Source: an uncultured Clostridia bacterium (GTDB lineage Bacteria > Bacillota > Clostridia > TANB77 > CAG-508). From it: DNA of 64,000 bases. The position numbers were made by a program, and so were the translations under genes. Of this stretch, positions 1 to 22,425 are shown piece after piece. The stretch lies in assembly GCA_947627755.1 (NCBI GenBank), contig CANQXD010000004.1, positions 6,441 to 70,440 of the forward strand, in the 5' to 3' direction. Within the stretch, counting starts at the first letter, position 1; every line of letters begins with the position of its first letter. The notes beneath the pieces are model-generated. The model had not been told where the DNA came from. It ran no database searches and worked only from the letters and a program-made list of their open reading frames with translations.

Positions 1-1
1 T

Positions 2-508: not shown

Positions 509-516
509 AAGAGAGG

Positions 517-2969: not shown

Positions 2970-2985
2970 TGTCTCTTTGGTAAGT

Positions 2986-3095: not shown

Positions 3096-3106
3096 CCCAA
3101 CAATAA

Positions 3107-5499: not shown

Positions 5500-5635
5500 A
5501 ATCTAAGAATATAAAATAATTTTTTTTGATTATGAAAGAAATATAAACTTTAATTTATATATAATGACTTTGCGAACTAATTACTTACTACTTAGTTCGC
5601 AATTGTTTTGACAAATTTGACAAAGGAGAAAAATT

Positions 5636-7226
5636 ATGCAAAATCCAAAAGGCTATGTAAGTTTTGTTTTACATGCCCATTTACCTTTTATACATCATCC
5701 AGAAAGTGAAAATTATTTAGAGGAGCAATGGCTATTTGAAGCAATTTCCGAGACCTATCTTCCCCTTCTTACGAATTTTCAAAAATTAGTTGAAGAAAAC
5801 GTAGATTTTCGAATTACTATGTCTATGACACCTCCTCTTTTAAATATGTTAGATAATAAATTATTACAACAAAGATATATAAAATATCTAAAGAAACATA
5901 TTGAACTTGCAAAAAAAGAGACAAAAAGAACCGCAGATGATAAACGTATCAATGAACTTTCCTACTATTATTTAGAAAAGTATTCTAATGACTTACATTT
6001 ATTTCATGAAGTTTATCAAGATAATATTATTCAAGGTTTTAAACATTTTCAAGATATTGGTGTATTAGAAATTATTACTTGCCGGAGCAACTCATGGTTA
6101 CTTCCCTATTTTATATATCACAGAGCAAACCATAAAGGCACAAATTGCAGTTGGTGTGCAGACTTATGAAAAATATTTTGGAAGAAAGCCACGTGGTATA
6201 TGGCTTCCAGAATGTGGCTATGTACCAGAAGCTGACCAATATTTAAAAGAATTTGGTATTGATTATATCATCACTGAATCTCATGGTATTTTATATGCAG
6301 ACCCTACCCCTATTTATGGAACTTATGCTCCTATTGTTTCTCCAAAAGGTGTTATTGCTTTTGGTAGAGATATGGAATCTTCTAGGCAAGTATGGAGTTC
6401 TATCAATGGTTATCCTGGAGACTTTAATTATCGTGAATTTTATCGTGATATTGGCTATGATGCAGACTACGACTATATTAAGCCTTACATTGCTCACAAT
6501 GGAGTTCGTGTTCATACTGGAATTAAGTACCATAGAATTACAGGAAAAGATTGTGAAAAAGATGTTTATAATTTACAATGGGCAAAAGATTCTGCAGAAA
6601 AACAAGCAAGCCATTTTCTAGATTCTAGAAAAAGCCAAATTTCAGTTGCTTCTTCTTATATGGAAAACCCTCCTATTATTCTATGTCCTTATGATGCTGA
6701 ACTTTATGGACATTGGTGGTATGAAGGTCCTTACTGGCTATATATTTTATTTAAAAAGATTCACTTTGATCAAAATGATTTTAAACTCATCACACCTAGC
6801 GAATATATAGCTAAATACCCTGAAATGCAAGTTGCTACTCCTTGTCGTTCTAGTTGGGGCGCTAATGGCTATAGCGGAGTTTGGTTAAATGAAACAAATG
6901 ACTATGTTCATCGCCATTTACACGTTGCAGGAGACCGTATGGTAGAGCTTGCTAATACATATTCAAATGAAAAAGAACCTTTAAAAGTACAAGCTTTAAA
7001 CCAATGTGCAAGAGAATTACTTTTAGCCCAAAGTAGTGACTGGTTATTTATTATTACCAATGGAACAATGGTGGATTACGCTAAAAAAAGAATTAAAGAA
7101 CATATTGGTCGCTTTACCAAATTATATGAACAAATTAAAGAAAATAAAATTGATGAAAACTTTTTAAAAGACTTGCAAGAAAAAGATTGCATCTTCCCTG
7201 AAATTGATTATAAGATTTATAATTAA
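5636..7226 (+). pseudogene. glycoside hydrolase family 57 (alpha-glucan branching enzyme-like), split by a +1 frameshift near 6083
   Basis: Track ORFs 5636-6169 and 6156-7226 are in different frames. The first frame reads VLEIITC. The second frame continues GATHGYFPILYITEQTIKAQIAVGVQTYEKYFGRKPRGIWLPECGY, a continuous GH57 motif once one C at about 6083 is skipped. Confidence 0.8.
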
Positions 7227-7341
7227 ATTGCAAGCACAAGTTACCAAAAACTCCCTTTCTGAATAAAATATGTATATCTAAGTTTTTTTAGTAGATACTA
7301 ATACATAGAAAAAAGAAAAAGAAAGGGGATTTTTTTGTCTT

Positions 7342-8193
7342 ATGAAATCTTTTTGCATAAAAACGAATAACCAAGAAATCATACAGTATTTATTAAAAAA
7401 TTTAGAAACCTCTTCCTTAAAAAATATTTATTATATTCATAGAAAATTCAAATGTTATGAAAATGTTATAGTACATTATAAAGGTAATGAGCAAAGTCTT
7501 TTTTTAGGCTTTTTAGCTGATGTTTTAACTGATTGCATTCTTTTCTTTTACGAGCCTATCTTGCTTCGAAAAATCCTTTACTTTCACTACTTCTACTTTG
7601 ATGATTTTGAAAGAAAGTTAATTGAAGAAAATTGTTATAAACAAATTATTTTAGAAGAAGATGACACATTAAAATATAGGAAAGAAGAAATTTGGTCTTG
7701 TGTACTACTCTATCTTCATGAAAATAAATCTATGATTTTAGATGGCTTTGTTACGTTCCGTTTGGAAGATTATTGCCACACCTTAGAGGAAATTGTTGAC
7801 TGCGCTGTAAATGAATATGTGATAGAAAAAGAATATACTGAATTTATCAATTTATTAAAATTATATATTGATTCAAAGGAGCCTCTTTGTAATATTATTC
7901 ATTTAGTATATCACAATGGAGAATCCATTTTATTAAATCAAGAGAAGAATATCATCTCGCTTGATGATAATATTTTTCATGCAAGATATTTATCTGATAT
8001 ATCATTTTCTTCTAATGACTATGCCTTAAATGCCTTGCTTACTTTGCTTCCAAAAAGAATTGAAATTCATTTAATTGGGTATGAAGATGAATTTATTAAC
8101 ACGCTAAAATTGATTTTTGGCAATCGCATCTTTATTTGCAAAGATTGCAACATTTGCCGAACCTATCGCGTTTTAAACAACGTTCATAGTTAA
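7342..8193 (+). CDS. YtxC-like sporulation protein
   Basis: LDGFVTFRLEDY ... EYVIEKEYTEFINLLKLYI resembles the YtxC family (TIGR02834) as I remember it. Confidence 0.55.
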   Translation: MKSFCIKTNNQEIIQYLLKNLETSSLKNIYYIHRKFKCYENVIVHYKGNEQSLFLGFLADVLTDCILFFYEPILLRKILYFHYFYFDDFERKLIEENCYKQIILEEDDTLKYRKEEIWSCVLLYLHENKSMILDGFVTFRLEDYCHTLEEIVDCAVNEYVIEKEYTEFINLLKLYIDSKEPLCNIIHLVYHNGESILLNQEKNIISLDDNIFHARYLSDISFSSNDYALNALLTLLPKRIEIHLIGYEDEFINTLKLIFGNRIFICKDCNICRTYRVLNNVHS

Positions 8194-8203
8194 TTTATAT
8201 TTA

Positions 8204-8254
8204 AGGGACGGAGCATTTTCTATAACATATTTTTATAGAATTTGCTCCGTCCTA
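8204..8254. terminator. bidirectional hairpin terminator between convergent genes
   Basis: GGGACGGAGCATTTTCTATAA ... TTATAGAATTTGCTCCGTCC is a long imperfect inverted repeat. Confidence 0.6.
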
Positions 8255-8261
8255 AAATTTA

Positions 8262-8609
8262 TTATTTCATATTATCAAGTCCGCCTTCTATTTGGTACAA
8301 ATTAGTATATCCTTGCTCTTGCAAAAGTTTTAAAGCTCTTTGACTTCTACTTCCAGACTGACAATAAATAATTATGGTATTTTCTTTGCTTTTTAATAAT
8401 TTTTCTGCATTTCTTTCTAAATCATATAAAGGATAGTTCATGCTTCCGTCTAAATGCCCTTCTTTATATTCTTGCGGACTTCTTACATCCACTAATATAG
8501 CTTGTTTATCGTTTTTTAAAATTGTTTTTGCATTTTCATAATCTATATTATTTTCTTCACTATTTCGATATTTTCGAAAGAAATGTTTTATACTTTCATA
8601 TATTTTCAT
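8262..8609 (-). CDS. rhodanese-domain sulfurtransferase
   Basis: ILVDVRSPQEYKEGHLDGS ... IIIYCQSGSRS contains the active-site Cys loop. The ATG at 8609 has a GGAAGTG RBS, so the longer track start is unlikely. Confidence 0.8.
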   Translation of the reverse strand: MKIYESIKHFFRKYRNSEENNIDYENAKTILKNDKQAILVDVRSPQEYKEGHLDGSMNYPLYDLERNAEKLLKSKENTIIIYCQSGSRSQRALKLLQEQGYTNLYQIEGGLDNMK

Positions 8610-8810
8610 ATTTTCACTTCCTGTCTTATAAAATCTAATATTGTATGATACAAAAATAGACATCCTATTCTATTTTATGAAGGATGTCTATTTTTTGTTA
8701 TTTTTATTACTTTTCTCTGTTATATTATTGTTGTTTTATTTTTATAGTTATTATTTATTGCTATTTTTATTATATATCGTTTATTTTCTTTATGATTCTA
8801 TTTTTATACT

Positions 8811-9437
8811 TTAATTGTTACATAATTTTGCTATTGTTGTTAAAACGAATAACACAGCAGCTATTGGCATTGTAAATTGATTTATTGGTAATCTTGTAAT
8901 AGCAAGTATTGCAAAATATAATAATTGAATTGCAACAATTCCTACTACTGTTTCTGCTAATGCTTTTGGCATACTTATTTCATTTCCTTGATGCTTATAT
9001 ATTGCTATATAGATGATGAAATAAACTATAACTAAAGCAAATGAAATAATAGCTGGTATGATATAAGGTTTTACAATATCTACAATGCTTACGCTTGGAA
9101 CTTCTGTTACTAATATATCCTCTGTTTCATTTTCAATGCCATATTTTTCGTTTATTTTTGTATTTAAATTTTCTAATTGCTCATCTGTTATATCTTTTAC
9201 ACTGATAGCTACCATATCTTCGTATAATTCTACTTTTTGAATGACTATTTTTTGGTTTCCTATAATTTCTTTTACCATGTCATATATTTCTTTATTTTCG
9301 AATTCTTCTCCAATATAGATATCTACTTCTTTATGGTCGCTATATGTAAAACCAAGGTTGAAGCCCCAAATAGAAGCAACTACAATACCTATTATTATAA
9401 TAAGAGCAATAATTCCGATTCCTATTTTCTTTTTCAT
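8811..9437 (-). CDS. SecF-like membrane protein (short, divergent)
   Basis: N-terminal TM, a GFNLGFTY segment like the SecF GLNLGIDFTGG region, and C-terminal TM helices. It directly follows the SecD-like gene. Confidence 0.35.
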   Translation of the reverse strand: MKKKIGIGIIALIIIIGIVVASIWGFNLGFTYSDHKEVDIYIGEEFENKEIYDMVKEIIGNQKIVIQKVELYEDMVAISVKDITDEQLENLNTKINEKYGIENETEDILVTEVPSVSIVDIVKPYIIPAIISFALVIVYFIIYIAIYKHQGNEISMPKALAETVVGIVAIQLLYFAILAITRLPINQFTMPIAAVLFVLTTIAKLCNN

Positions 9438-9452
9438 GCTTCTTCCCTCCTT

Positions 9453-10838
9453 CTAATCTCTAAGCATAAGGTTTGTTATGCTTATATGATATAATAGTGC
9501 AATGGCAATTCCCCAGAATAATACTACACCTATTGAAATATCCATAAAAGTAAAGGTGATTGCAATAATTAAGGAAGGAATTAAGATAATTAGTGCATTT
9601 TTTACTACTTTTATGATTTCTTTTTGTTTTAAGATACTATTTTCGATGAAGTAGCTAATAATTACACTTAACGCTATTCCAATTAGACCTGCAATAGAGA
9701 TTTCTACATTAAAGTATCTTATTGCAATTAGTAAAATGGCTATATAGCCTACAAGTGAAATGCTTGCTAAAATTCCTTTTGTTTTGTATTTAATTATGAA
9801 ATAAATCATTCCAATTGCTACAATAGCTATAGCTACACTTATTGCAATTGCAATTGATTGTGATGTGATATCTGAATAGATGAATTGATTTTGATCTATT
9901 TCATATATAACTGGCATTTTACCACTATCTATTAAACTTGCTATATTTGATGCTTCTGTTAAATATTCTTGTAATTGTTCTTGTGTTGCATTTGCTGAAG
10001 AACCTACTGATAATTGTAAAATTCCATTAGTAATTTCGTTATCAAAATAGGTTGTAAGTAAAGTAGTATCGTCTAATTTAAGTGCAATTTCTTTCGTTAC
10101 TGTTTCTTGAGTTTCTTCTGTTTGTTCGGTTTGGTCTGTACTTTGTGTTTCTTCAGTTTGTTGTTCATTTCCGTTTTGATTATCTTGTTCTTCTGTTGTT
10201 TCAACATAAGTATTGGTTATATTCTTGAATTTTTCGGTTCCTTCTTTATTAAATTCAAAGTTAATGAAAACAGTAACTGTTCCACTAGCATTGCTTCCAT
10301 AGCCAGCACGTACTGATTTTATATCATCGTTTGTCATTAAAACTTCGTTTGTGTCGTTATCTACTATTTCAAATTTTCCTTGTGAATACATTTGCCCAAC
10401 AATAACATCTGTATTTTCATTTTCTGGAACTTCTAATATAATTGTTCCATTTTCATTGCTTTGTTTAATGACATAGTCAGTTACATGCATTTTGCTTAAT
10501 CTTTTTTCAACAACAGCTTTTACTTTTTCATAGTTTTCTTGCGTTAAAATTTCTTCACTATTTACCTTTTTTTCCTCTGTTCTTGCAACTTCGGTTTCAG
10601 TATCTGTAGCTGAAATAACATTTCCTTCTGCATCATATTTAATAGTTTCTTTTACTTCATCACTTACTTTTAAGACTATTTTTCTATATCCCTTTAAGTC
10701 TCTTGCAAGTTGGTATTCTGGCAAAATATTGATATATTGACCTTTGCTTTGTACAAATATACCTCCAAATGATATTATTGCTAGTAAAACAATTACTAAA
10801 ATGATTAGTGTTAATTTTAAACCTTTGTACTTTTTCAT
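9453..10838 (-). CDS. SecD-like protein-export membrane protein (divergent)
   Basis: LARDLKGYRKIVLKV and VVEKRLSKMHVTDYVIKQSNENGTIILEVP resemble the SecD P1-head motifs. An acidic Q/E/T-rich insert and about 5 C-terminal TM helices follow. Confidence 0.5.
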   Translation of the reverse strand: MKKYKGLKLTLIILVIVLLAIISFGGIFVQSKGQYINILPEYQLARDLKGYRKIVLKVSDEVKETIKYDAEGNVISATDTETEVARTEEKKVNSEEILTQENYEKVKAVVEKRLSKMHVTDYVIKQSNENGTIILEVPENENTDVIVGQMYSQGKFEIVDNDTNEVLMTNDDIKSVRAGYGSNASGTVTVFINFEFNKEGTEKFKNITNTYVETTEEQDNQNGNEQQTEETQSTDQTEQTEETQETVTKEIALKLDDTTLLTTYFDNEITNGILQLSVGSSANATQEQLQEYLTEASNIASLIDSGKMPVIYEIDQNQFIYSDITSQSIAIAISVAIAIVAIGMIYFIIKYKTKGILASISLVGYIAILLIAIRYFNVEISIAGLIGIALSVIISYFIENSILKQKEIIKVVKNALIILIPSLIIAITFTFMDISIGVVLFWGIAIALLYHISITNLMLRD

Positions 10839-10924
10839 TTTTATTATCTTCCTTTCTTGTCTTGCCTTCGCTATAGAATATATTTGCGAAAGGTATCAAA
10901 ATTGTAATATTTTTATAGGTTATA

Positions 10925-11584
10925 CTATAATAGTTTTGTTCCGTTAATAATTAGTTCAAACCAAATATTTAAATATTTAGCTGCATATTTGCTCATCATG
11001 GTACGATCCATAAAGATTTCAAAATAATCTAATACTGGGCAAATTGTAGTATCAATGCTTAAGTCTAGTGTAGCTATTCTTGTTTCTTTGTCAATGCTAA
11101 AATCTGCATTGGTTACGGCATAATTCACTTTGTCGTGTTTATCAAAAGTGGACATATTGGTATTTACTACCCTATCACGATGAACATCAGATTTATCTGC
11201 TAAAATTAGGGCAGCTGATATATCGCTTACAGCTGTTCCAGTTTGTTCATCGTGGTTTCCAATTGCCATCATAATTTCAGTTCTTTCTTTAACATCCATT
11301 CCCATTTCCTTTAAGATTTGGTAAGCAAGGATTGCTCCTGAGTGTGCATGGTCTACTCTATTTACGCAATTTCCAATGTCATGCATATATCCTGCTATTT
11401 TTGCAAGTTCTATTCTTTCTTTTGGATAATCTAAAGTTTCTAAGATTCTTCCTGCTCTATTAGAAACAATAGAAATATGCCTTGTAGAGTGTTCTGTATA
11501 GCCTAAAGCATTTAATTGCTTTTGCGCTCCTACAATTAACTCTTGAATTTCCTGATTGTTTTTCACTTCTTCTAAAGTTATCAT
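10925..11584 (-). CDS. HD-domain phosphohydrolase
   Basis: STRHIS ... GYMHDIGN ... HAHSGA are the H..HD..H metal ligands. Confidence 0.75.
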   Translation of the reverse strand: MITLEEVKNNQEIQELIVGAQKQLNALGYTEHSTRHISIVSNRAGRILETLDYPKERIELAKIAGYMHDIGNCVNRVDHAHSGAILAYQILKEMGMDVKERTEIMMAIGNHDEQTGTAVSDISAALILADKSDVHRDRVVNTNMSTFDKHDKVNYAVTNADFSIDKETRIATLDLSIDTTICPVLDYFEIFMDRTMMSKYAAKYLNIWFELIINGTKLL

Positions 11585-11682
11585 CTATGTTCCTCCGTTA
11601 ACTCTGCTTTATTTTATCGTAAAAACATAAAAAATTCAACCATTTTTTGTAAATTGGTTGAATTTGTTTTGTTTTTATTTTC

Positions 11683-12174
11683 TTATTCTCTATTTCTTCG
11701 TTTATTATACCTTAATAATTTAAGCAAAAGAAAGGGGTGTCCCAAGCGTTCCATTTTGGAACGAAAAGGGGCGTCCCTCTTGTTCAATTCAAATTTACTC
11801 CTATAATTCCTCCGAAACATTCCCGCTACAATGCTAGCTACCATCATAATAATAGTATTTATATTACAAGTAAATCCAGAGCCTGTTAAACTAGAAAGTA
11901 AGTAAATTGTAAGAATATAAATAATTCCTACAAAACCGCCATTTAATAGTCCATTCTTTTTAATTTTTAACGTGCTAATGCTACTACCAATTAAAATACT
12001 AATTGCTGTAATAACAATTAGAACAGGATTTATTATATTTTCTTGTAAATTGGTATAAGTAAGTAAAATAGCAAAAATAAATAGTAGTAATAGTGTAATA
12101 ATAATAGCTGTAATACTGCCTTTTACAATACGCATTAAATTAGTTGAAAGTTCTTTTTTATCAAAGTTTCCCAT
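11683..12174 (-). CDS. small multi-TM membrane protein (YrzE/TIGR04086-like) whose 3' end reads through a repeat element
   Basis: Four hydrophobic helices. The last roughly 35 codons (KRDAPFRSKMERLGHPFLL...) are the translation of repeat element B1. Confidence 0.5.
   Translation of the reverse strand: MGNFDKKELSTNLMRIVKGSITAIIITLLLLFIFAILLTYTNLQENIINPVLIVITAISILIGSSISTLKIKKNGLLNGGFVGIIYILTIYLLSSLTGSGFTCNINTIIMMVASIVAGMFRRNYRSKFELNKRDAPFRSKMERLGHPFLLLKLLRYNKRRNRE
11727..11786 (-). repeat. GGGAC-core element family B, copy 1
   Basis: AAAGGGGTGTCCCAAGCGTTCCATTTTGGAACGAAAAGGGGCGTCCCTCTTGTTCA. Near-identical copies lie at 12266 and 18920. Confidence 0.85.
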
Positions 12175-12265
12175 TATTTTATCATTCCTTTCAATAGTGC
12201 AACCTTATTCAAATTTGTTTTTAATTTATTATATTAACCTTGTTTTTCTTTTAGAACTTTCATAT

Positions 12266-12326
12266 AAAAAGAAGGGATGTCCCCACCGTTCCATTTTGGA
12301 ACGAAAAGGGGCGTCCCTCATGTTCA
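12266..12326 (-). repeat. GGGAC-core element family B, copy 2
   Basis: AAGAAGGGATGTCCCCACCGTTCCATTTTGGAACGAAAAGGGGCGTCCCTCATGTTCA, immediately 3' of the stop of the 12329-12859 gene. Confidence 0.85.
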
Positions 12327-12328
12327 TT

Positions 12329-12859
12329 TTATCTCCAAATATCTTCGTTAATAAATTGCGTTAATGCCATAATAAAGGCTTGCTTTGTTAAATCGATTCT
12401 CGAAATTCTATCTTGTGTTAGTAGACTGATACCACCTTTTCCTGCTCTTAATTCTGTTTCGTTAAAAATTCTGTCCATTACTTTTCCTAAATCTGTTTCT
12501 ATTATTTCTTTTACATACTTTTCTGGTACTGGGAATCCAGAGCTTGTACCCCAACTTTTAAAGCCATTTTTATCTTCAATCACCGCAATATTAATAATAG
12601 TCCATTCTCCTAATTGGTTCGTAATTCCAGATTCCACTGCTACATAAAAATCTGCTTCTTTTCCTTGCTCCTTTGCTATTTTTCTTACGTTTTTTACTCG
12701 GTTGCTAGCTCCCTCATAAATTTCGTTATTTACTGGTTCTTCCGAAACATCACTACTTGCCTTAATTCCTTCTATTTCAAATTCTTTAAAATATTCTGAA
12801 AAAGCTAGTTTTGCTCCTTCTATTTTCCCTGGGTTACTACTTGCTACAATGATTTTCAT
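12329..12859 (-). CDS. inosine/xanthosine triphosphatase (YjjX/DUF84 family)
   Basis: MKIIVASSNPGKIEGAKLAFSEYF N-terminus is typical of the non-canonical purine NTPase family. The ATG at 12859 is preferred over the longer track ORF. Confidence 0.65.
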   Translation of the reverse strand: MKIIVASSNPGKIEGAKLAFSEYFKEFEIEGIKASSDVSEEPVNNEIYEGASNRVKNVRKIAKEQGKEADFYVAVESGITNQLGEWTIINIAVIEDKNGFKSWGTSSGFPVPEKYVKEIIETDLGKVMDRIFNETELRAGKGGISLLTQDRISRIDLTKQAFIMALTQFINEDIWR

Positions 12860-12950
12860 GTTAAATTTCATTCCTTTCTTATTTTGTTCAAAGTTACACA
12901 TAATAATGAACGATTATTTCTTTCAAACTATATTACCTACTCTATGATTA

Positions 12951-13373
12951 CTATCTTAATAATTTTTCTTTATAATATTCTACTTGCTCTACCATGTGAC
13001 CAATATTGCCTTCTCCTGCATATTTTTCTATATCAAAAAAGTTTTCCTTTTTATTTATCCACTGCAAATGATTCACTTCTTCTTTTAACTCTACTTCTTT
13101 GTTTAGTTTTCCTACATACACTTCTAATTCTATATTGGAAACTTGATATTGAAAATTCATTAAATGTTTTAATTTGACATCTTTTCTGGTAATACCCGTT
13201 TCTTCTTGTAGTTCTCGGTAGGCCCCTTGTAGTTTGGTTTCACCTTCTTCTAATTTACCGCCTACTAAATTATATTTTCCTTTATAGGGTTCTTTAGCTC
13301 TTTTGCACATTAAAATATTTTCTTCGTTTGCGTCATAAATCATAATTACATTTAATTTTTTCATTCTTTTCAC
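12951..13373 (-). CDS. NUDIX hydrolase
   Basis: Nudix box GGKLEEGETKLQGAYRELQEETGI. Confidence 0.85.
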   Translation of the reverse strand: MKRMKKLNVIMIYDANEENILMCKRAKEPYKGKYNLVGGKLEEGETKLQGAYRELQEETGITRKDVKLKHLMNFQYQVSNIELEVYVGKLNKEVELKEEVNHLQWINKKENFFDIEKYAGEGNIGHMVEQVEYYKEKLLR

Positions 13374-13458
13374 CTTTTTTGTTTGATTTTATCATAAGGT
13401 TGTTTTATTTACAATATTTTTTATTTTTTTGTTCATACTAATAGCAGGTGATACCAAT

Positions 13459-14403
13459 ATGAATTCTTTTTATTTATTACAAAATCCAGAAGTGTTTCAA
13501 GGAGAAAAGAAAATAAAATACACCAATTCTTATTTTGAAGGTTGGTATTTTAAGCATACTATTCAAAATAAAAGCATTTCTTTTATTCCGGGTATTCATA
13601 TTGAAGAAGGAAAAAAGTCTGCTTTTATTCAAGTAATTACTAATTTTTCTTCATACTATATTTCTTATCCATTTGATGAGTTTTCTTTTTCTCATGAACC
13701 TTTCTTTATTCGTATTGGAAATAACTTCTTTTCTTTAAATGAAATAAAAATAGATTTGCAAGATACAAATATAAAAATACAAGGTGAGTTATTTTATAGT
13801 AATCACAAAAAAATAAATAAGAGCTTTCTTATGCCGAATATTATGGGACCTTTTTCTTATCTTCCTTTTATGGAATGTAACCACGCTATTTTAAGCATGA
13901 AACATGAGGTAAATGGTTTACTTATGGTAAATGAACAGCCTTATCATTTTAAAAATGGAATTGGCTATATTGAAAAAGATTGGGGAAGTTCTTTTCCTAC
14001 TTCTTATGTTTGGGCACAAGCAAATGACTTTGAAAATCCAGATTGTAGTTTCTTTTTGTCTGTTGCTACTATTCCTATTTCCTGCTTTTCTTTTACTGGC
14101 TTTATTTGCTCACTTATTTTAGAGGGAAAAGAATATCGTTTTTCTACTTATAATGGTAGCAAAATTGCTAATTTTAGGACTTCTTCTCAAAATTTTAACA
14201 TAGTGTTAAAACAGAAAGATTATCGTTTGCATATTTATAGTGATACTAAAAATTCTTTTTCCTTAAAAGCACCACGAGTTGGCAGTATGAATAGAGAAAT
14301 TTTTGAAAGTATTGATGCTAATATTATGATTTGCTTATCTAAGCAAGATGCTATTCTTTTTGAAGGTAAAAGTAAAAATTGTGGACTTGAAATTGTGTTA
14401 TAA
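13459..14403 (+). CDS. tocopherol-cyclase-like family protein
   Basis: FEGWYFKH and GYIEKDWGSSFPTSYVWAQAN resemble the bacterial tocopherol cyclase-like family. The ATG at 13459 has an AGGTG RBS. Confidence 0.5.
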   Translation: MNSFYLLQNPEVFQGEKKIKYTNSYFEGWYFKHTIQNKSISFIPGIHIEEGKKSAFIQVITNFSSYYISYPFDEFSFSHEPFFIRIGNNFFSLNEIKIDLQDTNIKIQGELFYSNHKKINKSFLMPNIMGPFSYLPFMECNHAILSMKHEVNGLLMVNEQPYHFKNGIGYIEKDWGSSFPTSYVWAQANDFENPDCSFFLSVATIPISCFSFTGFICSLILEGKEYRFSTYNGSKIANFRTSSQNFNIVLKQKDYRLHIYSDTKNSFSLKAPRVGSMNREIFESIDANIMICLSKQDAILFEGKSKNCGLEIVL

Positions 14404-14409
14404 AAAGAA

Positions 14410-14439
14410 GAAAAGATTGGGACGTGTCCAAATCTTTCC
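14410..14439. repeat. GGGAC-core hairpin family C, copy 1
   Basis: GAAAAGATTGGGACGTGTCCAAATCTTTCC lies between convergent genes. Related copies are at 20822 and 40570. Confidence 0.7.
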
Positions 14440-14480
14440 TTCTTTTTATCCTTATACGTCATATCTACTATTATTCAGTA

Positions 14481-15929
14481 CTATATGATATAAAGTGCAG
14501 GACGGAAGCCGAAGCGCTCGTAAGTGCAAGTCGCAGTGTTGTAACCACGGTAGCACGCAGGGCTACCGAAGTAGGTAGTGTAGAAGCTACCACCACGAAC
14601 CATGTAACTAATTTCTGATTTGTTCTCAACTTTTTCATTTGTCCACTCCCATAAGTTTCCGGCTACATCATATAGATTCTTTTGTTTTACTCCTTCTGTG
14701 CTTGCTGTGGTTCTTATGCCATAGTGGTATTGTCCGTCTGCTACGATAAAGGCATCGTTACTACCACTATCTCTTTTTACCGCTGAATATCTTCCTTGTC
14801 CTGTTACATATTGTATATGTTCGCTATCTTCTTTGTTATAATTTCCCCAGTAACTTTCTGTTGTTACAATATTGTTATTTCCGTTTGCTATAAATGTTAT
14901 CATAGCATCCCACATTGTTCCTGTTACTAAGCCACTTTGTACATAGGCTGTTTGGTACATTCTATTACATAATTCTAATGCTGTAAAATAATCTGCGTGA
15001 TAATATGGTATTTCTCCTGCCTTACAGGTAATATTGCCTGTTGCTGTATGATTCAATTCTTTTCTTATAGAAAATTCTTCATTTTGCATATTATTTGCTG
15101 TATTTGCTTTTGCAAAATCTACTTTTGTTGATAATTTTATATTACTCGTTCCTGCTTCATATCTTCCTATATAAAATCCACCGTATTTTTTAATTTGTGT
15201 AAGTTCTGAGTCAAGTGGTTGTTGGTCCCATTCTACGTTTGAATATTTTGTTCCATCTTCTTTTGTCCAAGTTACTTTTGTATAATCTTCTATTTTTACT
15301 GGTATCCATACAAATTGGTTTCCTTTTAATTCAGATTGTTCTACATTTACAGTTCCATCATTGTTATATGCTACTCCTGTCGGTATTCCTTCTTTTACTT
15401 CTTTAGTTTGGGTATAGTTTGCATATTTATCTTTATCTTTTGGATCATCTGATATTACTACTCCACTTTCAACTGTTCCACCTACATAGTAAAAGCCTTT
15501 TGGTACTGGAACTTTATCTCCTTCTCCTGTTGCTATCGCTCTTACACTTATTTTTTCTGTTTCATCTGTTGGTATCCACTCATTTGGCAGTTTGACCTGG
15601 GTACCTGCTGGCGTTTCTTTTGTGATTTCTGGTAAATTTTCATTATCTTTAATTTCCATTTCTAATTCTGCTAGTGCTTTTTCCTCTTCTTTTTGTGCCT
15701 CTGAAAATTTTTGTGTTGCTTCTCTTGCTTTGTTAAATAATCCATTTTCTCCTAATATTAAATTTATGCTTATACCTGCTAAAATGATTAAAATAATAAT
15801 GGTTATTACAAGTGAGATTAGGGTTATTCCACTATATTCTTCAACATATTTGCTCAATTTTTCTTGAGAATTTTTGCAAATTCTTTTTATACAATTTATA
15901 TTTGTCTGTTGTTTTTGATGTTTTTTCAT
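14481..15929 (-). CDS. pilin-like N-terminal segment + FGE/SUMF1-like (sulfatase-modifying-factor fold) domain protein, paralog P1
   Basis: SGITLISLVITIIILIILAGISINLILGENGLF resembles a prepilin-type class III signal. GGFYIGRYEAG, LYDVAGNLWEWT, VRGGSF and FGFRPALY match FGE-sulfatase family motifs. Confidence 0.7.
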   Translation of the reverse strand: MKKHQKQQTNINCIKRICKNSQEKLSKYVEEYSGITLISLVITIIILIILAGISINLILGENGLFNKAREATQKFSEAQKEEEKALAELEMEIKDNENLPEITKETPAGTQVKLPNEWIPTDETEKISVRAIATGEGDKVPVPKGFYYVGGTVESGVVISDDPKDKDKYANYTQTKEVKEGIPTGVAYNNDGTVNVEQSELKGNQFVWIPVKIEDYTKVTWTKEDGTKYSNVEWDQQPLDSELTQIKKYGGFYIGRYEAGTSNIKLSTKVDFAKANTANNMQNEEFSIRKELNHTATGNITCKAGEIPYYHADYFTALELCNRMYQTAYVQSGLVTGTMWDAMITFIANGNNNIVTTESYWGNYNKEDSEHIQYVTGQGRYSAVKRDSGSNDAFIVADGQYHYGIRTTASTEGVKQKNLYDVAGNLWEWTNEKVENKSEISYMVRGGSFYTTYFGSPACYRGYNTATCTYERFGFRPALYII

Positions 15930-16025
15930 TTGTTTTCAACTCCTCTTTTTTGTTTTATTATATAAATGTATTTGGGCTAAAGCAATAAAATAGGCAGTTT
16001 TAGTTAATAACTTTTTTACATAATT
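15930..16025 (-). promoter_or_regulatory. conserved promoter/5' leader module of the pilin-like paralogs (copy 1)
   Basis: Minus strand TTGCTT(15985-15980)-17 nt-TATAAT(15962-15957), then a GGAG RBS. The roughly 95-bp block is conserved at 18714-18808 and 20128-20225. Confidence 0.6.
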
Positions 16026-16076
16026 TCATTTTTAATTTACAATTGTTTTTATATTTTTCTATATATCTTAATACTC

Positions 16077-16136
16077 AAAAAAGGGACTGTCCCAAATGGC
16101 AATTGATTGCCAAAAAAGGGCATCCCTTCTGTTTCA
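16077..16136 (-). repeat. GGGAC-core element, family B variant (different inner hairpin)
   Basis: AAAGGGACTGTCCCAAATGGCAATTGATTGCCAAAAAAGGGCATCCCTTCTGTTTCA. Its terminal TCA is the TGA stop of the 16134-16958 gene. Confidence 0.75.
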
Positions 16137-16958
16137 TCTTTTATTTAATTTTGTTAACTCTTTCTTTATTTTTTCTAATTCTTCTTTCTTTATTCCTGTT
16201 ACTTCTTGTATTATTTTATCATCTAATTTTAATCCTAACATTCTTGTTATTGTTATATGAAGCATTTCTATTTTGCCTTCTATTTTGCCTTCTATTTTGC
16301 CTTCTATTTTACCCTCTTTTTTACCTTTTTTTTCACCTTCTATTTTACCTTCTTCTATTGCTTGTAATCTTACTTTTAGTCTTTCTTTTCTTTCATTTTC
16401 ATGTATCCTTTCTGCTAATGTCATTGTTTTTTCCTCCTTTTTGATTTTTACTTTTTTTAATATTGTTTCTAGTTGCTCTTGCTCAATTATTCCTTCTGCT
16501 TTATATCTTATTATGTCTTTTATTTTTTCTAAATTTTTATTTTCACTTGTGTTTAATATTTCTTCTACATTTTTTATAAATTCTACTGTATTCTTGCTTT
16601 TCTCTAATAACATTACTTTTGATAATATGTTATCTTCTTGTAATAGTTCTTCTTTACTATATTTATTGATATCTACTAAACTTATTTCTTCTTTTTCTTC
16701 ATACCATTTTGCTTCTTCTTTTCTCATTAATATTTCTCGAATTATTTTATCATGTTCATTATTTCTGTCGTAAATGTATTCTTCTGGTTCTTCTGCTACC
16801 ATAGATTGTTTTTCTTCTGGCTCTATTAATTCATATAAATCATATAAACATATTTCTTTTTGTTCATTTAAACATTGGTATTTTCCCTTTTTTAACTCTT
16901 CTTTTTTCTGTTGAAATTCTTGATATTTTAGATAATGTTGATATGTGATTTTTAACAA
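16134..16958 (-). CDS. Glu/Lys-rich hypothetical protein with (GKIE)n repeat and an Rpn/YhgA-like C-terminal tail
   Basis: TTG start 5 nt after AGGAGG. EGKIEGKIEGKIEGKIE followed by GLKLDDKIIQEVTGIKKEELEKIKK resembles the tail of Rpn-family proteins. No PD-(D/E)XK nuclease motifs were seen. Confidence 0.5.
   Translation of the reverse strand: MLKITYQHYLKYQEFQQKKEELKKGKYQCLNEQKEICLYDLYELIEPEEKQSMVAEEPEEYIYDRNNEHDKIIREILMRKEEAKWYEEKEEISLVDINKYSKEELLQEDNILSKVMLLEKSKNTVEFIKNVEEILNTSENKNLEKIKDIIRYKAEGIIEQEQLETILKKVKIKKEEKTMTLAERIHENERKERLKVRLQAIEEGKIEGEKKGKKEGKIEGKIEGKIEGKIEMLHITITRMLGLKLDDKIIQEVTGIKKEELEKIKKELTKLNKR
16266..16352. repeat. 12-nt tandem repeat (TTCTATTTTGCC)n inside the coding sequence
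   Basis: About 7 consecutive 12-nt units by direct reading. They encode the GKIE/GKKE repeats. Confidence 0.8.
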
Positions 16959-17231
16959 ATTTTACCTCCTATGTATATTATATTTGTTTTAACTATACTG
17001 TCAATATAAATTTAAAAGTTAAAATAGTTTTTAAAGTAATTTCTTCTTTTTGCCACCCATTTATCTAATTTTTCTTTTTTCTTGATTTTTTTAAGAATCA
17101 ATTTTTTGATATTAATTTTTTGAACCCAATATTTTTTATATTTCTATTAAATCACATAAATAGTAAAAAAGCAAGAACTTTTCATCGCCTTTTTCTGACA
17201 TATTTCTTGCTTTTATTTGTTTTTATAATAA

Positions 17232-18713
17232 TTACTTGATATAAAGTGCAGGGCGATACCCTAAGTCCGTATTAGTTTGAGTTGCAGGTGTTCTAGCACG
17301 GAAACACGCAGGGCTCTGATTATAATAATTTTCAAAGCCACCACCTCTACGCATATAACTTTCTACTATATTATTAGATAAATCATTTGGATAAGATGCT
17401 TCTTGTGTCCACTCCCATAAATTTCCTGCTACATCATATAAGTTTTTTTGTTTTACATTTTCTGTGCTTGCTGTAGATCGTATTCCATAATGGAATTGTC
17501 CATCTGATTTTTGGAATCCTGATAGCATTCTTCCTGCTGTCGTAGAACCTTGATTATCAACTATAGCATATCTTCCTTGTCCTGCTGTATATTTTACATT
17601 TTGGTTTTCTTCTCTATAATTTCCCCAAGTACAGTTTGTTGTTACTGTAGTATCATCTCCAATAGCAATAAATTTCATCATAGCATCCCACATAGTTCCT
17701 GTTACTAGCCCACTTTGCACGTATTTTGAGCTTTCATACATTTTATTACATAAGATTAAAGCTGTAAAATAATCTGCATGGTAATATGGTATTTCCCCTG
17801 CCTTGCAAGTAATATTTCCTGTTGCTGTATTTCCTGATTCATCTCGAATAGAAAAATTAGGATTTTGCCAAGTTTTTGCATCATTTTGATTTGCAAAATC
17901 TACTTTTGTTGATAAACTAATTTCACTTGTTCCTGCTTCATATCTTCCTATATAAAAGCCACCATATTTCTCTATTTGTATTAGTTCTGATGTATGTGGT
18001 TGTGTCTCCCACGTGGCATTACTATATTCTGTATTTTCATCGCCTGTCCAAACTTCTTTCTTATAATCTTCTAATTCTACTGGTATCCATACAAATTGAT
18101 TACCTAATATTACTTTTTGTTTCTCACCATCTGTTAATTGGTCTTCTGTTTTTGGTATTCCTGTTGTTAAGTCATACTCTACTCCTGCTGGTACATCTGT
18201 TGTACCTGCATATTTATTTTGGTCGTTTGGATTATCAGATATTACTACTCCACTTTCTATAGTTCCTCCTACATAGTAAAAACCGATTGGTACTGGTACT
18301 TTTTCACCATTTCCTGTTGCTATTGCTTTTACATTTGATGCTACTACTGACTTCTTTACTATGTCTCCTTTTTCAGTTTCTACATAAGCTGGTGTTGTTG
18401 TGCTCCACTTGCTTGGCAATTTTACTTCTGTCCCTGCTTCTGTATCTTCTGTATTTTCTGGCAAACCTTTACTATATTCTTCTATTTGTTTTTCTAAGTC
18501 TGCTATACTTGTTTCTTCCTCTGCTTGTGCATTTAAAAATTTTGCTTGTGCTTCTCTTGCTTTGTTAAATAATCCATTTTCTCCTAATATTAAATTTATG
18601 CTTATACCTGCTAAAATGATTAAAATAATAATGGTTATTACAAGTGAGATTAGGGTTATTCCACTATATTCTTCAATAAATTCGTTTGTATATTGTTTTT
18701 GCTGTTTTTTCAT
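17232..18713 (-). CDS. pilin-like N-terminal segment + FGE/SUMF1-like domain protein, paralog P2
   Basis: The same N-terminal SGITLISLVITIIILIILAGISINLILGENGLFNKAREA as P1. GGFYIGRYEAG, LYDVAGNLWEWT, RRGGGF, LGYRPALY. Confidence 0.7.
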   Translation of the reverse strand: MKKQQKQYTNEFIEEYSGITLISLVITIIILIILAGISINLILGENGLFNKAREAQAKFLNAQAEEETSIADLEKQIEEYSKGLPENTEDTEAGTEVKLPSKWSTTTPAYVETEKGDIVKKSVVASNVKAIATGNGEKVPVPIGFYYVGGTIESGVVISDNPNDQNKYAGTTDVPAGVEYDLTTGIPKTEDQLTDGEKQKVILGNQFVWIPVELEDYKKEVWTGDENTEYSNATWETQPHTSELIQIEKYGGFYIGRYEAGTSEISLSTKVDFANQNDAKTWQNPNFSIRDESGNTATGNITCKAGEIPYYHADYFTALILCNKMYESSKYVQSGLVTGTMWDAMMKFIAIGDDTTVTTNCTWGNYREENQNVKYTAGQGRYAIVDNQGSTTAGRMLSGFQKSDGQFHYGIRSTASTENVKQKNLYDVAGNLWEWTQEASYPNDLSNNIVESYMRRGGGFENYYNQSPACFRARTPATQTNTDLGYRPALYIK

Positions 18714-18808
18714 TTTTTTTCAACTCCTTATTTTTTGTTTTATTATATCGATGTATTTTTGCTAAAGCAATAAAATGAATGTTTTTAACTTATCACTTTT
18801 TTACATAA
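18714..18808 (-). promoter_or_regulatory. conserved promoter/5' leader module (copy 2)
   Basis: Minus strand TTGCTT(18770-18765)-17 nt-TATAAT(18747-18742) and an AAGGAG RBS. Confidence 0.6.
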
Positions 18809-18919
18809 CTTTAATTTTAAAAATCATTTTAACATTAAATAATCTTTCTTATTAAACTTCTTTATCAATTTTTTTACTAAATAAATTTTATAATATAAAT
18901 GGCAATAAAAATTAAGACA

Positions 18920-18981
18920 AAAAAAGAAGGGATGTCCCCTCTGTTCCATTTTGGAACGAAAAGGGACGTCCCTCTTGTTCA
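18920..18981 (-). repeat. GGGAC-core element family B, copy 3
   Basis: AAGAAGGGATGTCCCCTCTGTTCCATTTTGGAACGAAAAGGGACGTCCCTCTTGTTCA. Confidence 0.85.
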
Positions 18982-19071
18982 TGGTTTTAATTTATAGGAC
19001 TCCAAGTTATATTTGAGAAAATACTAACTGTTGCCGGTGTGTTTTTTTGATAGGTACATGAGAGTTTAACT

Positions 19072-20127
19072 TCATAAGTATGTCCGTTTGGTAGCCTTAA
19101 AAGTCATTTGAAGTGATGGAACTCCATAATTTATAATACTACCATTGCAGGCAAAGTTTGCTCCCTTAGTTGTATCCCATAAATAAATAATTAAAAGATT
19201 GTTTGGTTCTGCATTTTCAACAGTGCACCAAGTAGATATGCTAACTAAAGTATCTTCTGTTGCAGTATAAGTAAAAAAGGAGACTTCGCTAGTACTATTT
19301 ATATTTTTTTTGTGAGCATGTGAATAATTAAAATACTGAAAACTATTTAGCAAGGTATCAAACTTTTTTGAAGATTCATTTAATGCAGTTGTTAATTGAG
19401 CATTTTGGGTTTGTGCTTGTTGCAATTGTGTAGTTAAACTTGCTACTTGACTAGTTAATGAGTTTTTATTTGCTTCTAAATCTTGTAGTTTTTTCTTACT
19501 ACTAGCTAATTCTGTCTCTTTTGCTTGTAATTGTTCTGTTAAACTATTTATTTGCTCATCTTTTGCTTGTATACTTCCTTCTTTTTCGGCTACTTCTTTG
19601 TTTAATGAATTGACCTCACTTTGTAAATTAGTTATTTGGTCTTGCTTACTTTTTATATCTGCTTGACCTTGTGCAACTTGTTTCGTTAATTCAGTTATTT
19701 CATTTTCTTTTTCTTGTATTTGTGATTTTCCTTGATTAACTTCTTCTTGTAATGTGCTTACTTGCTCTTGTAACACGTCTATCTGAGATTCTAACTCTTG
19801 CTTTTGCTGCTGTGAACTTTGTAATTGATTTTGTAAATCTTCTATGTTTTTTGTCAATTTATCTATAGTATCTTGCAATTCACCTACTGCTGGATAGTTA
19901 AAATTACCTTCTTGTTCCATTTGAGTATACAGTTCATTCATCCTTGTTTGTTCTTCTATTTGTGCTAATTCTATATCTTCTTTTGCTTTTTTTGCCATCG
20001 TGAATAGTCCATTTTCACCTAATACTAGGTTTATACTAACTCCTGCCAAAATAATTAAAATTACAATTGTTATAACTAACGAAATTAATGTAATTCCTTT
20101 GATATAATTTTGCTTTTCTTTCTTCAT
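19072..20127 (-). CDS. pilin-like N-terminal segment + long coiled coil + small C-terminal domain, paralog P3 (possible 3' frameshift)
   Basis: KGITLISLVITIVILIILAGVSINLVLGENGLF, then about 200 aa of Q/E/L heptad-like sequence. No FGE motifs. Confidence 0.6.
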   Translation of the reverse strand: MKKEKQNYIKGITLISLVITIVILIILAGVSINLVLGENGLFTMAKKAKEDIELAQIEEQTRMNELYTQMEQEGNFNYPAVGELQDTIDKLTKNIEDLQNQLQSSQQQKQELESQIDVLQEQVSTLQEEVNQGKSQIQEKENEITELTKQVAQGQADIKSKQDQITNLQSEVNSLNKEVAEKEGSIQAKDEQINSLTEQLQAKETELASSKKKLQDLEANKNSLTSQVASLTTQLQQAQTQNAQLTTALNESSKKFDTLLNSFQYFNYSHAHKKNINSTSEVSFFTYTATEDTLVSISTWCTVENAEPNNLLIIYLWDTTKGANFACNGSIINYGVPSLQMTFKATKRTYL

Positions 20128-20225
20128 TTGTTTCCAACTCCTTGTTTTTTTGTTTTATTATATCTATGCATTTTTTGTTAAGCAATAAAATGAAGGTTTT
20201 TAACTAATAACTTTTTTACATAATA
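20128..20225 (-). promoter_or_regulatory. conserved promoter/5' leader module (copy 3)
   Basis: Minus strand TTGCTT(20185-20180)-17 nt-TATAAT(20162-20157) and an AAGGAG RBS. Confidence 0.6.
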
Positions 20226-20324: not shown

Positions 20325-20370
20325 AAAGTAGCAATTGGGGATAAGTCCCTAATTGCTACTTCTTTTTTTA
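20325..20370. terminator. bidirectional hairpin with A-run/T-run flanks
   Basis: AAAAAGTAGCAATTGGGGATAAGTCCCTAATTGCTACTTCTTTTTTT. The stem carries the GGGA/TCCC core and the GTCCCTAATTGCTAC module also seen at 36929. Confidence 0.6.
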
Positions 20371-20739
20371 ATAGTCTTTCAAGTTTTCTAGTTGGATTCT
20401 TCTTTTTTCTTGTTTTTCTTGTAAATTTGCAAGCATTTCTTCGCTCATTTCATATTTGTTATTTTCCATATATTCTTGTGTATTTTCATACTTTTTTTCT
20501 AAATTTTCAATTTGTTCTTCTCTTGTTTGAATATCGGCATTTCCATTTAATTTTTCTCTTAAATCATCTATTTGTTCTTCACGAATTTCTTGAATTTCGC
20601 GTGCATGGTCTTTATTATCTTGATTTCCAATATGAGAATATTGCTCTAAATGTCGTTCTGTTCTTGTATGATTTTCCACTAAATTGATTAAATTATCAAT
20701 TTGTCTATCTTTTTTGTTTTGTTCGTCAAAATTTTCCAT
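20368..20739 (-). CDS. acidic coiled-coil protein (possibly Tlp-like small spore protein)
   Basis: 123-aa E/Q/N-rich helical ORF. The resemblance to SASP Tlp is weak. Confidence 0.4.
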   Translation of the reverse strand: MENFDEQNKKDRQIDNLINLVENHTRTERHLEQYSHIGNQDNKDHAREIQEIREEQIDDLREKLNGNADIQTREEQIENLEKKYENTQEYMENNKYEMSEEMLANLQEKQEKRRIQLENLKDY

Positions 20740-21864: not shown

Positions 21865-21879
21865 TGAAAGGATATGTAT

Positions 21880-22425
21880 ATGAAAAATAGTAAAAAATTA
21901 AAAATAAAAAAATTAAATTTCTATATTATTGACAATGACTATATAGATTTTTTAAGTAAATTTGAGAACCACATTGCTTATAATAAAAATGAGAAAAGAC
22001 CTTATATTGGAGTAGTTCTTGTAATAAAAGAACATTATTATTTTGCTCCTTTGTTTTCTCCAAAGAAAAAACACAAAACTTATAAAAATAATTTAACTTT
22101 CTTTAAAATTATAAATGAAAAGACAAAAAATAATTTAGGAATTATAAGGTTTTCAGATATGATTCCAGTACCAGAAGATTGTGTGTATTTATTAGATATG
22201 AAAAGTAAAAGTTATGGATATAAAAGGCTTTTATCTGAACAATATTCCTATATAAATAAGCCTAACAATAGACAAAAAATTATAGAAAAAGCAGAAAAAA
22301 TCTATCATATAGTTACCAATAATAAAAATAGCAAAGTATCAAAATTTTATAAAGATTTAAGTTGCAATTTTAAATTATTAGAAGAAAAGTGTTTAGAGTA
22401 CAAAATTAAACAAACAAAGGTATAA
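21880..22425 (+). CDS. toxN: type III toxin-antitoxin system toxin, ToxN/AbiQ-family endoribonuclease
   Basis: LNFYIIDNDYIDFLSKFE, KRPYIGVVLVIKEHYYFAPLFSPKKKH and LGIIRFSDMIPV parallel the ToxN/AbiQ N-terminal motifs as I remember them. An AAAGGA RBS lies 8 nt before the ATG at 21880. The track start at 21874 is an alternative. Confidence 0.8.
   Translation: MKNSKKLKIKKLNFYIIDNDYIDFLSKFENHIAYNKNEKRPYIGVVLVIKEHYYFAPLFSPKKKHKTYKNNLTFFKIINEKTKNNLGIIRFSDMIPVPEDCVYLLDMKSKSYGYKRLLSEQYSYINKPNNRQKIIEKAEKIYHIVTNNKNSKVSKFYKDLSCNFKLLEEKCLEYKIKQTKV

Follow-up and report, generated by a model that had tools for sequence, protein, structure and literature searches.

The 64,000-nucleotide stretch of DNA considered here (called the window throughout; positions 6,441 to 70,440 of contig CANQXD010000004.1) comes from the chromosome of an uncultured Clostridia bacterium. 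Its minus strand carries five genes, four of them designated P1 to P4, whose predicted products begin with a pilin-like N-terminus. P1, P2, and P4 end in a lectin-type head and appear to belong to a large family of variable proteins that serve as targets of diversity-generating retroelements (DGRs) in uncultured gut Clostridia. The genes and the P1 signal are listed here, with formylglycine-generating enzyme abbreviated FGE, open reading frame ORF, amino acids aa, and variable region VR.

14481-15929, minus strand: P1, ORF of 482 aa with a pilin-like N-terminus, a beta-rich region, an FGE-type C-lectin head, and a C-terminal VR
15735-15929, minus strand: P1 signal and hydrophobic helix, class III-like, consisting of a 34-aa basic leader, Gly, and ITLISLVITIIILIILAGISINLILGENGLF
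17232-18713, minus strand: P2, ORF of 493 aa, a paralog of P1 (identity 59% in aa and 72% in nucleotides)
19072-20127, minus strand: P3, ORF of 351 aa with the shared N-terminus, a coiled-coil stalk of ~200 aa, and an unrelated 100-aa tail
38964-40247, minus strand: P4, a fourth paralog of 427 aa, solitary among housekeeping genes, with an apparently decaying VR at ~38986-39094
52690-54669, minus strand: a fifth, divergent gene of 659 aa with the N-terminal module and with head motifs recognized by eye only

Genes with the pilin-like N-terminus

After the basic leader, P1, P2, and P3 share the sequence (S/K)GITLISLVITI(I/V)ILIILAG(I/V)SINL(I/V)LGENGLF. A first-pass annotation of the window had described these three minus-strand ORFs, with their common leader and hydrophobic motif, as a cluster of three. 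The ORFs are present as it described them, but the 64 kb hold five such genes (P4 and the divergent gene at 52690-54669 had been missed), and a truncated Transposase_31 homolog at 16134-16958 splits the cluster.

P4 came from a motif scan of all six reading frames. Its N-terminus is like that of P1 to P3, its head shows the motifs GGYYIARYEAS, CHEWTTE, VRGGG, and FRPILYI, and it is flanked by a flavin adenine dinucleotide-dependent oxidoreductase on one side and a P-type ATPase gene on the other. The fifth gene begins with MKNERA followed by VTLITLVVTVVILIIL (phmmer E value of 5.6e-4) and aligns to the module in hhalign with a probability of 91%, over its N-terminal 146 residues only. FGE-like motifs can be picked out by eye (WVWIPRY and, near the C-terminus, YDMNGGLWE, YRGGRW, and GFRAVV); this 659-aa ORF has no Pfam match, and its C-terminal half gave no significant match to the family profile.

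P3 had been described as a coiled coil with a small C-terminal domain, and this description holds: its Pfam matches are to coiled-coil families only and are followed by the ~100-aa tail, for which we detected no relatives and no relation to the lectin family profile. P3 corresponds to the N-terminus and the stalk portion of 636- to 667-aa relatives (e.g., P0089) that end in an FGE-type head with a VR, and it has no lectin head and would seem to be a stalk-only relative.

Related genes are targets of DGRs

The defining feature of the family, absent from the first-pass annotation, is that its members are DGR targets, as pairs of template repeat (TR) and VR with adenine-specific mismatches and hypervariability within populations show. 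A weak sequence match in the PDB to the Treponema DGR protein TvpA led us to survey four homolog clusters (≥90% identity) for variable positions. Three of these had 10 to 13 hypervariable positions, all within the last 45 residues, whereas the preceding ~420 to 450 residues held only 3 and 10 variable positions in two of the clusters and 92 in the third. The hypervariable stretch follows the pattern RGGSF[xx]S[x]S[xx]PACYR[xxx]TAT[x]T[x]T[xx]GFRPALYIK. Without exception, the 479 residues recorded at the hypervariable positions fall within the 15-aa set that can be reached from AAC codons by changing their adenines; K, E, Q, M, and W never occur among them. As a point on the other side, one abundant homolog cluster shows no variation in the VR.

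The retroelement itself lies beside several of these genes. Downstream of the P0053 gene (locus L008) come a bAvd gene (PF22296) and then a reverse transcriptase (RT) gene (RVT_1), and a 112-nucleotide (nt) repeat downstream of the RT differs from the 3' end of the gene by 13 mismatches, 12 of which are at template adenines. A phmmer search of 80 genome loci found bAvd and RT directly downstream of a homolog in four more (L019, L013, L049, and L067) and fragments in a further two. Mismatches between TR and VR again fall mostly at template adenines (8/10 in L019, 11/13 in L013, and 23/24 in L049), and the sole constant non-adenine difference across the pairs is the 3' end, CTCTA in the TR and CTTTA in the VR.

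These cassettes occupy different kinds of surroundings. L019, L049, and L067 lie in housekeeping contexts (rpsD/rpoA/lysS, clpC/groEL, and adhE/sipL). The surroundings of the L008 cassette (1-6300 and 11700-16100) resemble a conjugative element, with PrgI, a VirB4-like ATPase, a sortase, a CHAP hydrolase, a PemK toxin, and two integrases, a setting from which the retroelement could pass from one genome to another and act on chromosomal copies already resident there.

Two members on one 246-kb contig, ~23 kb apart (L042 and L071), are orphans with GC-rich VRs and no RT within 10 kb. Their VRs share every scaffold codon but have different bases in the first two positions of the variable codons, a pattern consistent with trans-acting diversification.

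State of the variable regions in the window

The VRs of P1 and P2 were located as follows.

14491-14602, minus strand: P1 VR, 112 nt, in register in the alignment with the VRs and TRs of DGR-linked homologs
17242-17353, minus strand: P2 VR, apparently decaying, with the scaffold retained and the codons drifting to AT

Targets linked to an RT have a conspicuous composition, with a GC content at third codon positions (GC3) of 0.48 to 0.57 in the VR and 0.12 to 0.16 in the rest of the gene, and across the loci that we retrieved VR composition forms a continuum from fresh to fully eroded. In P1, the last 126 coding nt have a GC content of 0.51, compared to 0.32 for the rest of the gene, and a GC3 of 0.55, compared to 0.17. 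The P1 VR is thus within the range of RT-linked targets; P2 (0.29 versus 0.15) and P4 (0.31 versus 0.15) are intermediate. The P1 VR ends in the VR-type ...GCACTTTA, and P1, P2, and P4 all retain the CTTTA end. A post-stop motif, TAG-nnCTGAA, that is common to RT-linked loci is kept in P1 and lost in P2. The VRs of P2 and P4 have AT-rich codons and contain E, Q, and K, residues that AAC mutagenesis cannot yield. Because its VR composition and flanking motifs match those of active targets, P1 may be a remote target that is rewritten in trans now or was until recently; by the same kind of evidence, P2 and P4 look like former DGR targets in decay.

It is also possible, though we hold it to be somewhat less than an even chance, that all of the copies in the window, P1 included, are fossil targets that lost their retroelement and are now ordinary paralogous surface proteins. 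Several observations point that way and count against current activity. No RT, bAvd gene, or template repeat occurs in the 64-kb window, where a template search with the 3' 220 nt of P1 to P4 returned only the cross-match between P1 and P2. P2 and P4 are plainly in decay, and the P1 VR contains one GAG (Glu) codon, which AAC mutagenesis cannot produce. The L008 template, the closest of those found, was considered as the cognate of P1 and rejected, with 15/82 non-adenine mismatches (the corresponding count for the P2 VR against this TR is 25/82). P1 and P2 form singleton clusters that have no near-identical relatives in the database. In a sister genome, the VR of the syntenic ortholog does not differ among the three contigs retrieved and is intermediate in composition, and this locus may be static; in many orphan loci, moreover, the VR is at genome composition. 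Set against all this is the composition of the P1 VR, which equals that of RT-linked targets even though such a patch should erode in a genome with a GC3 of 17%, and the existence of equally fresh orphan VRs more than 10 kb from any RT, such as the two on one contig described above.

The N-terminal module and type IV pilus operons

The N-terminus of these proteins, for its part, recurs far outside the lectin family. A search with the first 61 residues of P4 retrieved ~2,000 proteins, the best matches being proteins of 50 to 105 aa that consist of the module and one amphipathic helix. In an exhaustive profile search, 32,579 clusters (50% identity) contained the module at an E value of ≤0.001 and 22,683 did so at ≤1e-10, a recurrence far beyond chance. 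In the 150 best matches, proteins of 70 to 700 aa, the module is N-terminal in all but one. The exception, P0303 (706 aa), has two copies of the module, at residues ~8 and ~390, and is probably two tandem family genes fused through a frameshift or an assembly error.

Conservation was counted over 201 unique sequences. The leader has a median length of 11 aa and a net charge of +3 and is followed, after position -1, by 25 hydrophobic residues. Position -2 is Lys in 68%, position -1 is Gly in 92% and Ala in 7%, position +1 is Ile in 99%, and positions +2 and +3 are Thr and Leu in 100%. Thr9, Ile10, Leu13, Ile15, Leu16, Ala17, Gly18, Gly26, Asn28, and Gly29 are also near-invariant. Among 74 long module proteins, the heads include BspA-type leucine-rich repeats (LRR; 11 proteins), FGE-sulfatase domains (6 proteins), DUF285, LRR_8, GLUG, Big_2, and PKD; domains of this adhesin type also occur in the modular pilins described by Raynaud et al. 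Although the heads are unrelated, hardly any variation is seen in the first 30 residues that follow the Gly, and conservation to this degree goes beyond the needs of a membrane anchor.

The first-pass annotation had called this N-terminus pilin-like, and two results bear it out. The module profile aligns with the solved pilins MshA, PilA, and geopilin at the G|FTLIEL cleavage motif (E values of 0.006 to 0.02). In addition, the module forms the N-terminus of the sole 70- to 73-aa pilin gene in five complete operons, where it adjoins a homolog of the prepilin peptidase PilD. These five loci, in related gut Clostridia (L004 at 7166-16266, L005, L089, L090, and L102), carry a conserved type IV pilus operon (pilins P0151 at two loci, P0234, P0145, and P0133) with the order BacA, PilM/N-like protein, two small proteins, 70- to 73-aa pilin, prepilin-peptidase homolog, two minor pilin-like genes, PilB, PilT, PilC, and ROK. 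The PilD homolog matches A24_N_bact, the zinc-binding N-domain only, with an E value of 1e-30. With a presumed major pilin of 70 to 73 aa that has no Glu at position +5 and a PilD homolog that has no A24 domain, this operon may encode a noncanonical type IV filament system. We lean toward reading the module as a type IV (class III-like) signal that enters the pilus pathway. Incorporation of the lectin-head proteins themselves into filaments is possible but somewhat doubtful.

Several observations weaken the pilin reading. Position +5 is Ala in 77% and Ser in 21% and is never Glu (n = 201), the mini-pilins of the operons included. The N_methyl profile (PF07963) has no match in P1 to P4; weak matches occur in 14/68 and 10/74 relatives, and the cutoff was reached once, by the internal copy of P0303. 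Peptidase_A24 has no match in the PilD homologs even at an E value of ≤1. Pilus machinery is missing from the surroundings (10 kb) of all 80 lectin-head loci, and homologs of PilB, PilC, PilD, PilT, and PilM are lacking in the 64-kb window, where the first-pass annotation, too, had seen no prepilin peptidase, assembly ATPase, or platform gene. A tblastx comparison of pilus loci with lectin-head loci found only a shared neighborhood of a tetratricopeptide repeat (TPR) gene and BacA (L045) and otherwise noise, and in this relative the operon is absent at that position. Relatives of the P0089 type have a coiled coil of ~230 aa separating the helix from the head, and stalks of this kind (P3, P0089) fit membrane-anchored display across the wall better than incorporation into a filament. 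Two other mini-proteins with the module are solitary, outside any pilus operon.

Most of these observations would also be expected if the proteins were DGR targets whose N-terminus is an uncleaved transmembrane anchor, or a module for some other machinery, with no role in filaments; so would the 22,683 clusters with their very varied heads, which are more than a set of minor pilins would suggest. We nevertheless judge this explanation unlikely, given the presence of the module as the pilin N-terminus in five pilus operons, the near-invariance of the 30 residues after the Gly over unrelated heads, and the alignment of the profile with solved pilins exactly at the cleavage motif. If the signal is indeed handled by the pilus pathway, display of a processed protein that is retained in the membrane and incorporation into a filament are equally possible. 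The former would resemble the class III substrates of archaea, such as the sugar-binding proteins of Sulfolobus.

The lectin-fold head and the question of enzyme activity

P1, P2, and P4 have heads with a C-type-lectin fold of the FGE type. The first-pass annotation had seen a domain with FGE-sulfatase family motifs; the motifs are there in P1 and P2 and the fold is borne out by a model of the P1 head, but the domain match to PF03781 is only borderline (23.6 bits in P1, for a cutoff of 23.3; 19.2 bits, under the cutoff, in P2; none in P4). Among relatives, 56/68 match PF03781 at an E value of ≤0.01. The head of P1 (residues 98 to 482, modeled with a 68-sequence alignment) was predicted with high confidence (predicted local distance difference test score [pLDDT] of 93.3, predicted TM-score of 0.93). 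Its best matches in a Foldseek search of the PDB are all FGE-type C-lectins (EgtB, pFGE, FGEs, PvdO, PorK, and CarF), and solved DGR variable proteins are also matched, namely TaqVP (E value of 7e-4), TvpA (2e-3), and Mtd (5e-3). With probabilities near 1, TM-scores of 0.3 to 0.5, and identities of 9 to 18%, the matches of this model indicate the fold class and not close kinship. A full-length P2 model (pLDDT of 70) gave nothing significant in a fold search of the PDB.

The borderline PF03781 match and the presence of EgtB and FGE among the best fold matches could be taken to mean that these proteins are enzymes of the formylglycine-generating (or EgtB/OvoA-like) kind, anchored in the membrane, whose substrates are exported, an idea close to the surface-displayed enzyme that the first-pass annotation had offered as an option. 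We consider this highly improbable and an enzymatic role of the lectin heads very unlikely. The stretch equivalent to the active-site loop of FGE is the hypervariable region. The catalytic cysteine pair of FGE is not conserved in the C-terminal loop of the family, where a single near-invariant Cys (PAC-Y/F-R) is left and the adjacent positions are hypervariable; this is the loop that we take to correspond to Cys336/Cys341 of human FGE; alignments of the P1 C-terminus with solved FGEs were too weak to map catalytic residues or to confirm the correspondence. No sulfatase genes lie nearby, and DGR variable proteins of the same fold are among the matches, including TvpA, which is without FGE activity (PMC5758913). 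Because the DGR rewrites the last ~35 residues of the head in relatives, the family would consist of variable binding proteins and not of sulfatase-maturing enzymes.

Size and distribution of the family

Homologs of P2 number more than 4,300 at an E value of ≤0.001 among 90%-identity clusters. Of the 120 listed, none carries a name, and all come from metagenome-assembled genomes (MAGs) and metagenomes. A scan of genome collections with P1 alone had no matches, whereas an alignment used as the query was successful and found at least 393 genome loci, with Clostridium sp. CAG:440 as the best match (58% identity). The 80 loci kept are all from uncultured gut Clostridia, and their hosts are humans, rabbits, mice, chickens, and ruminants. 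The DGR family of these loci is cellular: a prophage origin or a role as phage receptor-binding proteins, suggested by the many DGRs that are phage borne and by a preprint that likens Bacillota variable proteins to phage receptor-binding proteins (bioRxiv 10.1101/2024.11.15.621889), is scarcely credible when 2.9 million viral contigs contain only 10 loci of the family, compared to at least 393 in genomes, when the window and RT-linked loci sit amid housekeeping genes, and when one cassette lies on a conjugative element and not on a phage.

Surroundings and history of the locus

The window is chromosomal, with ~30% GC, and contains housekeeping genes, among them dnaE and one for a P-type ATPase, and two tRNA genes, together with a trigger factor/ClpP/ClpX region assigned by synteny. 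Two further features belong to the cluster.

16134-16958, minus strand: truncated homolog of Transposase_31 (Rpn/YhgA-like), between P1 and P2
15930-16024, minus strand: conserved upstream leader of P1, with equivalents at ~18714-18808 (P2) and ~20128-20222 (P3)

The window shares synteny with a 269-kb contig from a related MAG (L001), on which the order is sigma factor, DUF1287, 123-aa ORF, one pilin-like FGE gene, Transposase_31, tocopherol-cyclase-like gene, and NUDIX. The same interval in the window contains P3, P2, the truncated Transposase_31 homolog, and P1. Since one pilin-like gene in L001 corresponds to three in the window, the locus has undergone a one-to-three expansion, and the 72% DNA identity between P1 and P2 implies that the duplication is not recent. 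The homolog at 16134-16958 has no Pfam match; it matches the full-length gene at the equivalent position in L001 (E value of 1e-91), is truncated N-terminally, and has an (EGKI)n repeat.

Similarity between P1 and P2 and between P1 and P3 reaches ~100 nt upstream of the ATG. From an alignment of four upstream regions, the leaders of P1, P2, and P3 have TTGCTT-N17-TATAAT and an AAGGAG ribosome-binding site. Stable hairpins lie 3' of P1 and P2 and a terminator-like site lies 3' of P3, and the three genes appear to be separate transcription units. A promoter and terminator scan was too noisy in this AT-rich DNA and added nothing beyond the upstream alignment.

Two neighboring genes may be recorded here. 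An acidic, helical 123-aa ORF with no Pfam match (20368-20739, minus strand) occupies the same position, just upstream of a pilin-like gene, in L001 to L003. The gene at 21874-22425 on the plus strand encodes a toxin of the ToxN family (PF13958, E value of 8e-43), part of a type III toxin-antitoxin system; upstream of it, Tandem Repeats Finder detected no tandem-repeat antitoxin RNA and Rfam gave no match.

Proposed explanation

The account that we consider probable overall is that these are DGR variable proteins with a pilin-like signal, delivered to the surface by the pilus pathway, and that the window holds remote copies of them. Each protein has three parts. The first is a type IV pilin-like (class III-like) signal with a hydrophobic helix, in a variant that has no Glu at position +5; the second is a connector, helical and beta-rich; and the third is the FGE-type C-type-lectin head, whose last ~35 residues are the VR. 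In relatives, RT and bAvd copy the template repeat into complementary DNA (cDNA) with misincorporation at template adenines, and the cDNA then replaces the 3' end of the gene. In this way, 10 to 13 AAC-templated codons are rerandomized on an otherwise fixed lectin scaffold, giving a predicted ligand-binding site that changes rapidly. The window genes would be chromosomal "remote" copies with no retroelement of their own. The N-terminus would carry the head to the surface via the type IV pilus pathway, either as a minor or tip pilin or as a membrane-anchored protein processed by the peptidase, and the products are predicted to be variable adhesins or receptors and not enzymes.

A wider reading, which we put forward only tentatively, is that a noncanonical filament system provided a signal that now serves as a general surface-display module (>20,000 clusters) and that DGRs, located on chromosomes or on conjugative elements, hypermutate the lectin members in cis as well as in trans.

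DGRs reach their highest density in the human gut, and those of their cellular targets that are understood, in Bacteroides, are adhesins of type V pili. For a large number of targets in Clostridia, the family described here supplies a definite layout, in which a pilin-like N-terminus is followed by a stalk and then by a lectin head of the FGE type, and the tie of the module to a type IV pilus operon suggests a route by which these proteins reach the cell surface. The module itself is large and unnamed (22,683 clusters) and is missed by standard pilin detectors because Glu5 is absent. The gradient of VR GC content, from fresh to eroded, would offer a way to separate live DGR targets from fossils in AT-rich genomes by sequence only. 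If the wider reading is true, these gut Clostridia would have pilus-borne adhesins that change rapidly, and among Gram-positive bacteria such type IV pili would be the counterpart to the type V pili that DGRs diversify in Bacteroides.

Comparison with known systems

The first-pass annotation had not recognized the combination as a described system. This stands for the combination with a pilin-like N-terminus, but FGE-type DGR variable proteins have been described (TvpA; PMC5758913). Full-text searches for literature that joins a DGR with a type IV pilin, prepilin, or pseudopilin found none; the nearest mention is one line that lists a "GspG-type pilin" domain among rare VR-holding domains (PMC11661182). 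In the survey by Wu et al. (2018), no class of DGR targets is larger than that with the FGE-type lectin fold, and some targets are noted there to have N-terminal extensions of unknown function (PMC5758913). Cellular, plasmid-borne, or integrative and conjugative element-borne targets of Bacillota are said only to resemble phage receptor-binding proteins (bioRxiv 10.1101/2024.11.15.621889).

The "CLec1/FGE-sulfatase" class, with TvpA of Treponema denticola (2Y3C) and TaqVP of Thermus aquaticus (5VF4), likewise has a target-Avd-RT cassette with a template repeat, adenine-specific mutagenesis, and remote extra targets in the same genome. TvpA is a lipoprotein, however, whereas the present family has a pilin-like signal and helix, sometimes with a long coiled-coil stalk, and identity is ~12%. 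SUMF1/FGE (PF03781) shares the fold and the C-terminal motifs GNxWEW, RGGS, and GFR; in the present family, hypervariable positions take the place of the active-site loop, and an enzymatic function is not expected.

On the pilus side, the modular pilins of Streptococcus sanguinis (PilB, which carries a vWA module, and PilC, which carries a lectin module; Raynaud et al. 2021, PMC8179133) likewise graft a binding module onto a class III-type N-terminus, and modular pilins as a group carry a wide range of domains on one N-terminal module (PMC8179133). Canonical modular pilins have Glu5, an IPR012902/PF07963 match, and a globular pilin domain. The present family has no Glu5, a subthreshold profile match, and no globular pilin domain in evidence, and its grafted module is hypermutated by a DGR. 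The type V pilus tip adhesins of Bacteroides (Macadangdang et al., bioRxiv 10.1101/2024.11.15.621889) are similarly pilus-associated adhesins diversified by DGRs that are cellular or borne on conjugative elements in gut bacteria; they differ in phylum, in strand-exchange pilus assembly, and in target folds.

The closest functional analogue within type IV pili is PilV, the shufflon-varied minor pilin of the thin pili of IncI R64/TP114 (PMC9045228). There, too, a minor type IV pilin that acts as an adhesin has its C-terminus varied by a DNA mechanism dedicated to the task, and the setting is conjugative, like that of one homolog cassette (L008). The shufflon works by site-specific inversion among a few cassettes, whereas the present family uses retroelement-driven randomization of codons. 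In sum, a DGR-diversified lectin-fold head is known, and what is new is its junction with a widespread, uncatalogued pilin-like module that does without Glu5.

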